Source: Escherichia coli (lineage in GTDB: Bacteria; Pseudomonadota; Gammaproteobacteria; Enterobacterales; Enterobacteriaceae). From it: 64,000 bases of DNA. The stretch lies in NCBI RefSeq assembly GCF_003334785.1, contig NZ_QOWV01000001.1; one strand, written 5' to 3'. Under the pieces are notes generated by a model. That model was given only the letters and a program-made list of their open reading frames with translations, made no database searches and had not been told where the DNA came from. A program made the position numbers and the translations under genes. Below, piece after piece: positions 28,943-31,457 of this stretch (the first letter of the stretch is position 1; every line of letters begins with the position of its first letter).

Positions 28943-29125
28943 TCATCGATCTTGTATCACTTTTTTGCCGGAAGTTGTTTGCATTTTATTAGTTGGATAG
29001 GGTTTGTGGATTTTTGCTGGCTGACGGGCAAATAAAGTTTGTTTAATGGTTTGCTTATCTGCCAGTTGATTAATCACATGGCGGGCTATCTGACCGCCAG
29101 CACCAAGAATCAGTACATTTTTCAT
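28943..29125 (-). pseudogene. ymjC: N-terminal remnant of an NAD(P)-binding Rossmann-fold protein
   Basis: 60-codon ORF MKNVLILGAGGQIARHV... carries only the dinucleotide-binding motif, then stops. Confidence 0.5.
28957..28986. repeat. direct repeat copy A (about 30 bp, 28/30 identical to copy B)
   Basis: TCACTTTTTTGccGGAAGTTGTTTGCATTT upstream of mpaA, inside ymjC remnant. Confidence 0.7.
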
Positions 29126-29195
29126 GAAAATTATCCCAGATTATTGGCAGCAATATGCCAGTCCATATCACTATTGCGGATTTGAATATGTTTCA

Positions 29196-30153
29196 TTACA
29201 GAGTTTCCTCAAAGAACGGAGCTAATACTGAAATTGCTTCAGCCACATAGGCTTTGCCGTCATAAAGATCCATATGGTTTGCGCCTTCAACAATGTGATA
29301 GCGTTTATCCTGGCTTGATGCTCGATCGTACAGGTCGTCACTCATCCATTTGCTCCCTGCCTGGCTGCCCGCCACAATCTGCGTCGGCTGAGTCAGGTAC
29401 ACTTCCGCCATATGGTAAGCATCATAGGTAATAATCTGGTTAAGGCTGCGCAAAGTAGCGTAACTTAAGGCTGCGCAAAGTAGCGTAACCCGGTGCTGTT
29501 GGATACTGCGCGCGAGGGGTGTGGTAATACTCCCAGGCCTGACGCAGTTCTTCGTTCGGCGCATCGGACTCCTTCATTGGTGCCAGTGGCATAATGGCGT
29601 ATTCTCCGCTGCTAATATCGCTGGTTCTGGCGTTTGAACCCGCTTCAACGTATGGCAGGGCATCAATAGATTTCACATTGTTTTCCCAACCATTACGGAA
29701 TATCGAACCAATATTGACCGCACTAACGGTACCGATGGCCTTGATGCGGCGATCCTGAATTGCAGCATTGGCTGTATATCCTGCACCGGCACAAATTCCC
29801 ATCGCACCAATTCGGGTATTGTCGACATAAGAAAGCGTTGTCAGGTAATCAATCACGGCACTGATGTCTTCAGTACGAATGTATGGGTTTTCTAACTGAC
29901 GCGGCTCGCCGCCACTTTCACCTTGATAAGATGCGTCATAAGCAATAGTGACAAATCCCTTTTCCGCCAGTTTTTTGGCATAGGTTCCGGCCGTTTGTTC
30001 TTTAACGCCCCCACCTGGGTGAGATAACACAATTGCCTGATACTGACGGGTTTCATCAAATTTTGGAGGGAAATAGATCACTGCAGACAAAGAGATGGTT
30101 GGATTATTGCTGTTAGTGAAGCTGACTTTATTATTCATCATTCCGTTCCTCAT
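29196..30153 (-). pseudogene. ycjY: alpha/beta-hydrolase (dienelactone hydrolase/S9-like) interrupted by a 25-bp tandem duplication
   Basis: Two overlapping ORFs (29440..30153 and 29196..29564) share the peptide YATLRSL either side of the duplication; removing one copy gives a single ORF of about 306-310 codons. Confidence 0.75.
29440..29489. repeat. perfect 25-bp tandem duplication (2 copies) inside ycjY
   Basis: ttaaggctgcgcaaagtagcgtaac at 29440-29464 repeated exactly at 29465-29489. Confidence 0.9.
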
Positions 30154-30278
30154 GGAGTTGTCGGTTCGTTTTAACGGTTGGTGATATCACTATAGATATT
30201 GATCATTAAGTTGATTAGACCCAAAATCATGATTAGACCTATCATTTAAATGATTAATAGATTGCATGGAGATACTGA

Positions 30279-31178
30279 ATGAAGCGTGAAGAAATCGCTG
30301 ATCTGATGGCGTTTGTCGTCGTTGCAGAGGAGCGTAGCTTCACTCGTGCAGCAGCCCGCCTGAGCATGGCGCAGTCAGCTTTAAGCCAGATAGTGCGTCG
30401 TATAGAAGAACGATTGGGATTGCGGCTTCTGACGCGAACCACGCGCAGCGTTGTTCCAACTGAAGCGGGCGAGCATCTTTTGTCTGTTCTTGGCCCTATG
30501 TTGCATGACATAGATTCAGCCATGGCATCCCTGAGCGATCTGCAGAACCGCCCATCCGGGACAATACGTATTACTACTGTAGAACATGCAGCAAAAACGA
30601 TATTGTTACCAGCAATGCGCACATTCCTGAAATCGCATCCTGAAATTGATATTCAGCTCACCATTGATTATGGTTTGACCGATGTCGTTTCTGAACGTTT
30701 TGATGCAGGCGTCCGTCTGGGTGGGGAGATGGATAAAGATATGATCGCCATTCGAATCGGGCCAGATATACCAATGGCTATTGTTGGCTCACCGGATTAT
30801 TTTTCTCGCCGAAGTGTTCCAACGTCAGTGTCACAATTAATAGATCATCAGGCAATTAATTTGTATCTTCCCACATCGGGTACAGCAAATCGCTGGAGAT
30901 TAATACACGGTGGACGTGAAGTTCGTGTTCGCATGGAAGGTCAGCTTTTACTGAATACGATAGACCTGATCATTGATGCTGCAATTGATGGGCATGGATT
31001 GGCGTATCTACCTTATGATCAGGTTGAGCGGGCTATTAAAGAAAAAAAACTGATACGTGTTTTGGATAAATTCACACCAGATTTACCCGGTTATCACCTG
31101 TACTATCCACACCGTCGACATGCTGGCTCGGCATTCTCATTATTTATAGATAGGCTGAAGTATAAAGGTGCTGTTTAG
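30279..31178 (+). CDS. ycjZ: LysR-family transcriptional regulator
   Basis: 299 aa ORF, N-terminal HTH plus LysR substrate-binding domain; divergent from ycjY. Confidence 0.85.
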   Translation: MKREEIADLMAFVVVAEERSFTRAAARLSMAQSALSQIVRRIEERLGLRLLTRTTRSVVPTEAGEHLLSVLGPMLHDIDSAMASLSDLQNRPSGTIRITTVEHAAKTILLPAMRTFLKSHPEIDIQLTIDYGLTDVVSERFDAGVRLGGEMDKDMIAIRIGPDIPMAIVGSPDYFSRRSVPTSVSQLIDHQAINLYLPTSGTANRWRLIHGGREVRVRMEGQLLLNTIDLIIDAAIDGHGLAYLPYDQVERAIKEKKLIRVLDKFTPDLPGYHLYYPHRRHAGSAFSLFIDRLKYKGAV

Positions 31179-31427
31179 CACTACTTGCTGATACATTAAT
31201 TTAATTCTTCTCTTAACGTATTCTCAGTTCCTTTCAACGTTTTGGTCATTTTTTATTCTTCGTACAATGGCGACAGATGCTGATTATGATACCGAAAACG
31301 GGTTTGAACGTGCGAAGCCCGAACGTAGTGTTCGGAGTTCTATGTGCTTTACCGCATTTTGGAGACTATTATTTACACTAAATCTGATTTGATATATTGA
31401 TACTTAAAACATTTGATGCTTCCTTTG

Positions 31428-31457
31428 TCACTTTTTTGATGGAAGTTGTTTGCATTT
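31428..31457. repeat. direct repeat copy B
   Basis: TCACTTTTTTGatGGAAGTTGTTTGCATTT, 36 nt upstream of the first in-frame ATG of the mppA ORF. Confidence 0.7.

Follow-up and report, generated by a model that had tools for sequence, protein, structure and literature searches.

A 30-bp repeat pair between mpaA and mppA of Escherichia coli as probable attachment-site cores of an eroded insertion

INTRODUCTION

In Escherichia coli, the murein-peptide genes mpaA and mppA lie on either side of a short block, ymjC-ymjD-ycjY-pgrR (pgrR is also named ycjZ), that is bracketed by two nearly identical 30-bp sequences. How did this block come to lie between the two genes, and what are the repeats at its ends? 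We addressed these questions for the locus as it occurs in a 64,000-nucleotide stretch of E. coli contig NZ_QOWV01000001.1 (hereafter, the window), where we refer to the repeat beside mpaA as copy A and to the repeat beside mppA as copy B. An original prediction, made from the letters of the window, offered two possibilities: either the block was inserted or rearranged between mpaA and mppA, formerly neighbors, or the repeat reflects duplication of the 5′ end of a gene. Here, we present evidence that the block is an insertion and that the repeats are probably the cores of the attL and attR attachment sites left by a lambda-family integrase. Att-flanked remnants of mobile elements are a known kind of object; what is new here is the reading of ymjC-ymjD-ycjY-pgrR as a heavily eroded one, and no earlier description of the block as an integrated element was found in the searched literature.

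RESULTS AND DISCUSSION

Copies A and B form the only repeat pair of their kind in the window

Copies A and B are direct repeats that are identical at 28 of 30 positions and spaced 2471 bp apart, as the original prediction had described them (same orientation, about 2.47 kb apart). They differ at two positions only, which read CC in copy A and AT in copy B and which both fall within the strand-exchange overlap predicted below. No other pair of 30-mers in the window differs at two or fewer positions. A repeat search stretches the pair to 42 nt at 83% identity, but comparison with sites that lack the block (see below) shows that the real duplicated unit is the 30-mer.

Both copies are located in AT-rich non-coding DNA, in which two stretches might resemble each other by chance. 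However, the best pair found in dinucleotide-preserving shuffles of the sequence (n = 30) matched at 24 of 30 positions, compared with the observed 28, and the analytic expectation for such a pair is 7e−6, or 2e−4 if intergenic composition is assumed. In addition, the boundaries of the repeats coincide exactly with the junctions of the empty sites. The similarity is therefore significant against a shuffled background, and we regard chance as a practically negligible explanation for it. Queried with 61 nt around copy A, 5,419 complete E. coli genomes contain a median of 2 matching places each, which correspond to copies A and B. This low number rules out membership in a dispersed intergenic repeat family (REP/BIME, ERIC, or MITE).

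The block was inserted into a once-shared mpaA-mppA control region

In a survey in which one genome per species was scanned with MpaA, we recovered 80 loci. The mppA gene directly adjoins mpaA, in divergent orientation, in 74 of them, and the spacer between the two genes is usually 182 to 185 bp long and contains one copy of the 30-bp element. Taxa with such an uninterrupted spacer include E. albertii, E. whittamii, three more non-coli Escherichia lineages, Citrobacter, Enterobacter, Lelliottia, Kluyvera, and Klebsiella. Among the 80 loci, those of E. coli and one close Escherichia lineage are the only ones with the block. Joining window positions 28862-28986 to positions 31458-31514 yields 182 bp, which is the length of the spacer in five sister Escherichia lineages, and the sequence is nearly identical to theirs. 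Because the E. coli junctions rebuild the single-copy spacer of the relatives to the base, the block is an insertion with a sharp 30-bp duplication. That it was inserted into a once-shared mpaA-mppA control region, with duplication of the target, is close to certain. The former adjacency of mpaA and mppA that the original prediction had envisaged is thus supported by the 74 species, and by about 3% of E. coli genomes, in which the two genes are divergent neighbors with a single copy of the element between them.

The lone element of the sister Escherichia lineages reads GCC at the variable positions, as does copy A. Moreover, copy A is identical to the lone element of Escherichia sp. MOD1-EC7003 and nearly identical to that of other Escherichia. 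It is located 96 to 125 bp upstream of the mpaA ATG. Across the E. coli alleles examined, both copies are invariant, and copy A always lies in the spacer between mpaA and the SDR gene of which ymjC is a remnant. These observations contradict duplication of a gene's 5′ end as the source of the repeat: copy A is ancestral spacer DNA and not SDR sequence, and it is older than the deletion that created ymjC. The placement of copy A inside ymjC holds for the K-12 open reading frame (ORF) at 28943-29125, but only through a 664- to 682-bp deletion. Similarly, the repeats do enclose ymjC, ycjY, and ycjZ, but they do not enclose exactly these genes, since a ymjD remnant and 241 nt of non-coding debris (31187-31427) also lie inside.

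The module of the insert consists of pgrR divergent from ycjY-hyd2-SDR (hyd2 encodes a second alpha/beta hydrolase), to which adh_short and OYE genes are sometimes appended. In Klebsiella, Raoultella, Kluyvera, and others, the module is found in unrelated neighborhoods, at 87 to 88% protein identity and ~79% nucleotide identity. The G+C content of the block (0.445 to 0.447) is also lower than that of the flanking genes (0.512), which bears out the compositional difference for which the original prediction had proposed to look. The low G+C content, the patchy distribution, and the unrelated contexts of the module elsewhere support the view that the block is horizontally acquired, foreign DNA. 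A candidate adh_short remnant at the left end of the insert was rejected, as it gave no significant tblastn match.

Since the module is widespread in Enterobacteriaceae at ~79% nucleotide identity, an enterobacterial donor that carried the block beside a homologous spacer could in principle have delivered it by homology-facilitated illegitimate recombination or by Campbell integration. The 7 nt to the left of the core, of which 4 match between the two copies, would also fit such a route. Yet none of the five module copies of other genera that we examined is located near mpaA or mppA or carries the 30-bp element, the ends of the insert resemble none of the 80 mpaA-locus spacers, and the spacer is uninterrupted in all 74 other species. 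We consider this route very improbable. Target-site duplication by a transposon or insertion sequence was rejected, because the insert has neither terminal inverted repeats at its ends nor a transposase ORF, and because the duplication measures 30 bp versus the typical 2 to 14 bp.

Two loci of the survey deserve separate mention. Escherichia sp. E1V33 is the sole non-coli species representative with the block. It has the SDR deletion of the K-12 type and PgrR and YcjY proteins of 97 to 98% identity, which suggests that the locus was introgressed or else that E1V33 and E. coli are very close kin. In Citrobacter sp. 18056 (L057, 1282-9882), a 2,866-amino-acid (aa) ORF occupies the place directly upstream of mpaA at which mppA would be expected, and there is no mppA within 10 kb; a prophage initially considered at this position was rejected, since the region is that ORF.

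The repeats are probably attL and attR cores of a lambda-family integration

The DNA immediately to the left of copy B resembles the phage lambda attachment site. Window positions 31343-31422 are 76% identical to lambda positions 27637-27716 over 80 nt (BLAST against 2.3 Gb of phage DNA, E = 1e−6). The lambda record annotates the recombination core at 27724-27738, with Int binding sites around it. In an ungapped alignment anchored at the core, the inner P arm (lambda −87 to −1) matches at 62 of 87 positions (71%) and the 15-bp core at 9 of 15, while identity beyond the inner P arm and core, on either side, is at the background level of ~22 to 23%. Elsewhere in the window, on both strands, the same 87-nt lambda segment matches at no more than 41 of 87 positions, so that the observed value corresponds to a z score of 9.6. 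The homologous segment abuts copy B and overlaps it by 2 nt.

In this register, the half-site, overlap, and half-site of the element read TCACTTT/TTTGCCG/GAAGTTG, and those of lambda read CAGCTTT/TTTATAC/TAAGTTG, where we take the positions of the lambda 7-bp overlap and core-type half-sites to be those of established knowledge of lambda att. The reverse complement of the right half-site is CAACTT, like lambda C′. From the lambda-like layout and spacing, we predict that the core of the element consists of inverted core-type half-sites around a 7-bp overlap. Because the P arm abuts copy B in the lambda register, the right junction can be read as P-O-B′ (attR) and the left junction as B-O-P′ (attL). 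We propose that the repeats are probably the attL and attR cores of a lambda-family site-specific integration, by a prophage or a phage-like island, and that the attB used probably lay midway in the 182-bp divergent control region once shared by mpaA and mppA. As in lambda and lambdoid att, core direct repeats flank the insert, the P-arm homologue is on the attR side, and the empty site has a single core. Unlike in lambda, the identity block is 30 bp long instead of 15 bp, and the target is the mpaA-mppA spacer instead of gal-bio.

The same weak match as that of lambda was given by ~48.5-kb "plasmid" records of PLSDB (H168-H170; assigned to Salmonella, Stenotrophomonas, and Paenibacillus). Their size is that of lambda, and they probably represent sequencing-control DNA of lambda that was submitted under plasmid entries.

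A present-day integrase crosses over in the predicted overlap. An ~11.2-kb element is located exactly between pgrR and mppA in an IMG/VR contig (L103) and in the complete genome of strain RM10410 (L109, ~4770-15990). Its genes encode a 412-aa tyrosine integrase (PHROG 1, E = 8e−72), a helix-turn-helix (HTH)/excisionase-like protein, BRO-N, an Icd-like protein, a primase, a single-stranded DNA-binding protein, and a prohead protease-capsid fusion. In int, HTH, BRO-N, Icd-like, primase, and prohead protease-capsid fusion genes, this set is like that of the helper-embedded phage-inducible chromosomal island (HE-PICI) satellites, for whose clade off-target chromosomal integrations are documented (PMC10111431). 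The RM10410 junctions, TCACTTT·TTGGATG·TAGGG and CTTCTTC·TTTGATG·GAAGTTG, place the crossover in the predicted overlap of copy B, TT(T/G)GATG. At 99.6 to 99.7% nucleotide identity, the same integrase interrupts prophage terL (terminase large-subunit) genes in O157:H7 and O121 (L110 and L111). Integrase and junction sequence occur in 90 of 5,426 complete E. coli genomes, and three of the locations were checked. The satellite of RM10410 reached copy B in a separate, recent event and did not give rise to the repeats.

Several observations weigh against a lambda-family origin of the block. We detected no integrase, excisionase, or phage gene or remnant inside the insert, either by tblastn with lambda Int or among its ORFs, which are all accounted for by SDR, hyd2, ycjY, and pgrR. 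The P′ arm expected on the right side of copy A (112-187 nt) resembles neither lambda nor any phage record, and conservation does not extend to the outer lambda P arm (the P1/P2 arm-site region), where identity is 23%, equal to background. In a comparison of the two insert ends for arm-type motifs, the only one in common was a single 10-mer, TTTTATTCTT, which is not significant (E of ~0.05). Where lambda has a phage genome, the interior of the block is an ordinary metabolic/LysR module that is untypical of phage DNA, although this cargo could have entered an older prophage remnant secondarily. Neither the core (no exact match to its pattern in IMG/VR) nor a reconstructed attP (metagenome contigs) was found in a living phage or metagenomic contig; with the P-arm consensus, only attR sites that have the lambda core and one E. 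coli junction were recovered. Finally, lambda Int and the RM10410 integrase share only 23% identity, and copy B is an off-target site for the latter; RM10410 shows that the site is recombinogenic for integrases, but not which integrase made the old insertion. An integrase fragment beside pgrR in Kluyvera (L095) was considered as a clue to the original integrase and rejected, as it is an unrelated 200-aa recombinase and the nucleotide homology ends at the pgrR stop codon.

The lack of an int gene, a recognizable P′ arm, and phage genes would be expected if no integrase had been involved. In that case, foreign DNA would have been captured at a staggered double-strand break or through template switching during replication, fill-in of 30-nt overhangs would have duplicated the target, and the P arm would stem from some earlier or later phage event of no relation to it, or be coincidental. 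Such an origin would agree with the apparent identity of both copies to the native target at first, and with a cargo that resembles a chunk of chromosome and has a "QueH fragment" at one end. It leaves as coincidences, however, that the P-arm homologue stands exactly against copy B and in the register of the lambda core (z = 9.6), that the core has the lambda half-site/overlap layout, and that a present-day integrase crosses over in the predicted overlap. To our knowledge, 30-bp duplications are also untypical of break-repair insertions in E. coli. We judge an integrase-free duplication to be unlikely, and prefer the attL/attR explanation.

We hypothesize that the integration proceeded as follows. 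An attP with the same 30 bp would have recombined with attB inside the 7-bp overlap, TTTGCCG, to give B-O-P′ beside mpaA (copy A) and P-O-B′ beside mppA (copy B). Later deletions would have removed int, xis, and the remaining genes of the element, while the cargo module pgrR / ycjY-hyd2-SDR stayed. The cargo itself is in decay: hyd2 has been lost, SDR has been truncated, and ycjY has acquired a 25-bp duplication. At present, the repeats act in two ways: as direct repeats for precise loss of the block, which restores the single-copy spacer, and, in the case of copy B, as an attachment site for present-day integrases.

Cryptic remnants of K-12 (e14, Rac, CPS-53/KplE1, and others) are catalogued, and they retain integrase or other phage genes. 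The block would be like them in being an old integrase-mediated insertion that is reduced by deletion, bounded by att sequences, and polymorphic among strains; unlike them, it retains only att sequences and cargo. If the ymjC-ymjD-ycjY-pgrR block of K-12 is such a stripped, integrase-delivered remnant, its absence from the sister species and from ~3% of E. coli is explained.

The block has been lost precisely in several E. coli lineages

Adjacent mpaA and mppA genes are found in 173 to 174 of the 5,419 E. coli genomes. In CP131_Sichuan, the flanks are 100.0% identical to those of K-12 over 1,700 and 1,600 bp, but the block is missing and a single element of the GAT (copy B) type is present. 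This junction is matched exactly in three further genomes, and GF4-3, PT62, and MS 21-1, which represent other backgrounds, also have single GAT copies. In contrast to the block-carrying E. coli, both copies of the block-carrying Escherichia sp. E1V33 read GCC. The AT of copy B therefore arose after the insertion. Since AT is then younger than the insertion, the single GAT alleles descend from carriers of the block, by recombination in the first 11 nt of the repeats. Judging by these junctions, at least four of the sequenced empty sites are precise excisions.

GCC is found at the other empty sites, which comprise those of 2013C-4282 and AST85, whose mppA-side flank is like that of non-coli Escherichia, and of a large group that contains sequence type 648 (ST648), at 98.4%. 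The empty sites of 2013C-4282 and AST85 are either ancestral or imported; for the ST648-containing group, the question is undecidable.

The losses resemble the generally known deletion between short direct repeats, in that a 2.4- to 4.0-kb block was removed precisely and one hybrid repeat was left behind. They would differ from ordinary deletions of this kind in their substrates, which are here former att cores. The natural precise-excision alleles constitute near-isogenic material in which block-plus and block-minus states can be compared.

The element may preserve a divergent promoter region

Why would an identity block of 30 bp be used when the crossover takes place within 7 bp? In an alignment of 74 distinct mpaA-mppA spacers, conserved blocks are found on the mpaA side (GCAGTGTTGTGCAAA and TTATCAAAT), inside the element (ATCA, TTT, GAAG, and TTTGCATTT), and just to the right of the element (GAAACAAATAATTAC). 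A consensus scan identified a promoter-like sequence for mppA, TTTGCA-18-AATAAT, at 31449-31478, of which the 3′ end of copy B supplies the −35-like hexamer. From these matches, the element looks like the −35 and upstream half of a putative mppA promoter.

The conserved blocks and the hexamer, as well as the invariance of both copies in E. coli, raise the question of whether the copies are kept as a common cis-regulatory operator or promoter module for mpaA and mppA, so that their similarity would reflect function and not history. Several features do not fit this view. The copies have the same absolute orientation and are thus oppositely oriented relative to their own genes, and no dyad symmetry was seen in the element. 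One copy suffices in the relatives, and copy A has no −10 partner. The empty sites and the sharp 30-bp boundaries indicate that the second copy arose by insertion. The published sites of PgrR from genomic SELEX (systematic evolution of ligands by exponential enrichment) include the ycjY/ycjZ spacer, but the target list does not contain the mppA leader (PMC5934670); a PgrR operator in the repeat was therefore rejected as having no support in the SELEX target lists. We consider a purely cis-regulatory explanation of the two copies improbable. At most, function explains why an identity block of such length was tolerated or selected.

If the repeats are attL and attR cores, the length of the block has a consequence for both neighbors. 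Because the identity block exceeds the overlap on both sides, the insertion would have left each gene with its full set of conserved upstream blocks, including, for mppA, the −35 region. Extended att identity blocks are known to serve as a "replacement sequence" (PMC10111431). As at the att sites of icd and tRNA genes described there, the identity block is longer than the ~7-bp crossover and the target stays intact; in contrast to those sites, the restored target is not a coding sequence or a tRNA gene but a divergent promoter region with its conserved upstream blocks, the functional role of which is putative. The parallel with the replacement sequence rule may reflect selection. The locus may thus be a naturally occurring case in which what an att identity block keeps intact is a promoter region and not a gene.

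The insertion may also bear on how mpaA is regulated. The PgrR regulon includes ycjY-ymjDC-mpaA (PMC5934670; PMC3946193). Because pgrR accompanies ycjY-hyd2-SDR in other genera without linkage to murein-peptide genes, the control of mpaA by PgrR is most simply understood as a result of the insertion, which would have put mpaA downstream of the cargo operon. PgrR, the "regulator of peptidoglycan recycling," can accordingly be reread: its control of mpaA is probably a consequence of the place where the element landed.

The element may be a recurrent landing site

Further insertions are on record in this region. For an mEp immI prophage whose integrase is of type III, integration is reported "at the initiation region of mppA" (PMC11893012).

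In Salmonella arizonae and diarizonae (L024, 6848-10000; L026, 6562-10000), a three-gene islet is located between mppA and mpaA. Its middle gene matches the CdtB family (NF011787, E = 1e−113), and neither of the outer ORFs gave a match to an NCBIfam family. The spacer is interrupted within the 30-bp element without any duplication, and other sequence stands in place of its mppA-proximal half.

A small, promoter-embedded site may thus be a recurrent landing pad for different mobile elements. We tentatively conjecture a wider scenario of three parts, which, taken jointly, we regard as possible but doubtful. First, the element would be a long-lived hotspot for multiple integrases and would have been hit independently at least four times, by the pgrR element, the mEp immI prophage, the HE-PICI satellite, and the Salmonella cdt islet. 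Second, the change from CC to AT in copy B would have been written by a cycle of integration and excision, through an attP whose overlap ended in GATG, so that the site was re-specified. Third, as a corollary, PgrR would be the cargo regulator of its own ycjY-hyd2-SDR operon, and its control of mpaA would stem from the insertion that placed mpaA downstream.

Genes of the block and their decay

Window positions 28100-31600 are 100% identical to the genome of E. coli strain FORC 064. From left to right, the genes are tpx, ycjG, mpaA (−), ymjC (−; the SDR remnant), the ymjD remnant, ycjY (−), pgrR/ycjZ (+), and mppA (+). The features of the locus are listed in Table 1.

TABLE 1 Features of the mpaA-mppA locus in the window
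Feature	Position	Strand	Length	Description
mpaA	28133..28861	−		Murein tripeptide amidase; left flank of the ancestral divergent pair; annotation in matching genomes
Copy A	28957..28986	+	30 bp	TCACTTTTTTGCCGGAAGTTGTTTGCATTT; probable attL-type core (B-O-P′), ancestral sequence kept
Copy A, predicted overlap	28964-28970	+		TTTGCCG
Insert, window strain	28987..31427		2,441 bp	Decayed form of a longer insert (at least 3,978 bp; SDR-hyd2-ycjY / pgrR and end debris)
SDR (NmrA-like) remnant	28988..29125	−		46 N-terminal codons; alignment to the intact 212-aa SDR of strain EP91A
ymjD	29131..29196	−		N-terminal remnant of hyd2 (second alpha/beta hydrolase); deleted gene in the window lineage
ycjY	29196..30141	−		Alpha/beta hydrolase, frameshifted; start by homology to K-12 YcjY; open frame reaches 30153
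pgrR (ycjZ)	30279..31178	+		LysR regulator divergent from ycjY; insert cargo
Non-coding debris	31179..31342			From pgrR to the P-arm homologue; includes PGAP "QueH fragment" (~31276-31350)
P-arm homologue	31343..31429	+		Similar to the inner P arm of lambda attP (lambda −87 to −1)
Copy B	31428..31457	+	30 bp	TCACTTTTTTGATGGAAGTTGTTTGCATTT; probable attR-type core (P-O-B′)
Copy B, predicted half-site	31428-31434			TCACTTT
Copy B, predicted overlap	31435-31441			TTTGATG
Copy B, predicted half-site	31442-31448			GAAGTTG
mppA	31515..33128	+		Murein tripeptide binding protein; right flank of the ancestral divergent pair

The block varies in length among E. coli strains. In strain 99E2750, SDR-hyd2-ycjY/pgrR is intact and 3,978 bp separate the repeats. 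Strain EP91A lacks hyd2 (3,081 bp). The K-12 allele lacks hyd2 and, in addition, 664 to 682 bp of the SDR gene (2,416 bp), and the allele of the window corresponds to the K-12 state plus the 25-bp duplication in ycjY (2,441 bp). Among the 5,426 complete genomes, hyd2 is intact, between SDR and ycjY, in 1,283 (e.g., 99E2750 and O157-type strains), the SDR segment in 2,943, and the K-12-type deletion junction in ~2,294. The ymjD product, MKHIQIRNSDM(D/A)WHIAAN, matches the N terminus of the hyd2 product of strain 99E2750, and ymjD corresponds to about the first 18 codons of hyd2.

In the non-coding debris between pgrR and the P-arm homologue, positions 31179-31342 have no match to other module copies, to spacers of other genera, or to phages. 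A 41-aa ORF is located at 31267-31392, where PGAP names an "epoxyqueuosine reductase QueH fragment." This fragment may be a trace of the donor context; a donor with pgrR beside queH was not found.

The frameshift in ycjY of the window is caused by a perfect 25-bp tandem duplication (TTAAGGCTGCGCAAAGTAGCGTAAC twice) at 29440-29489, which is absent from K-12. Counted with a 40-mer centered on the junction, the duplication is found in 52 of 5,426 complete E. coli genomes.

Within the ymjC ORF, homology to SDR is confined to the part listed in Table 1, and the last 14 codons and the stop codon are spacer DNA that includes copy A. The SDR deletion, with its junction at 28986/28987 and ATT/TATT microhomology, fused the first 46 SDR codons to this spacer. 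The same K-12-type junction creates a promoter-like sequence directed toward mpaA, TCCACA-16-TAAAAT (29010-28983, minus strand), as a match to the consensus only.

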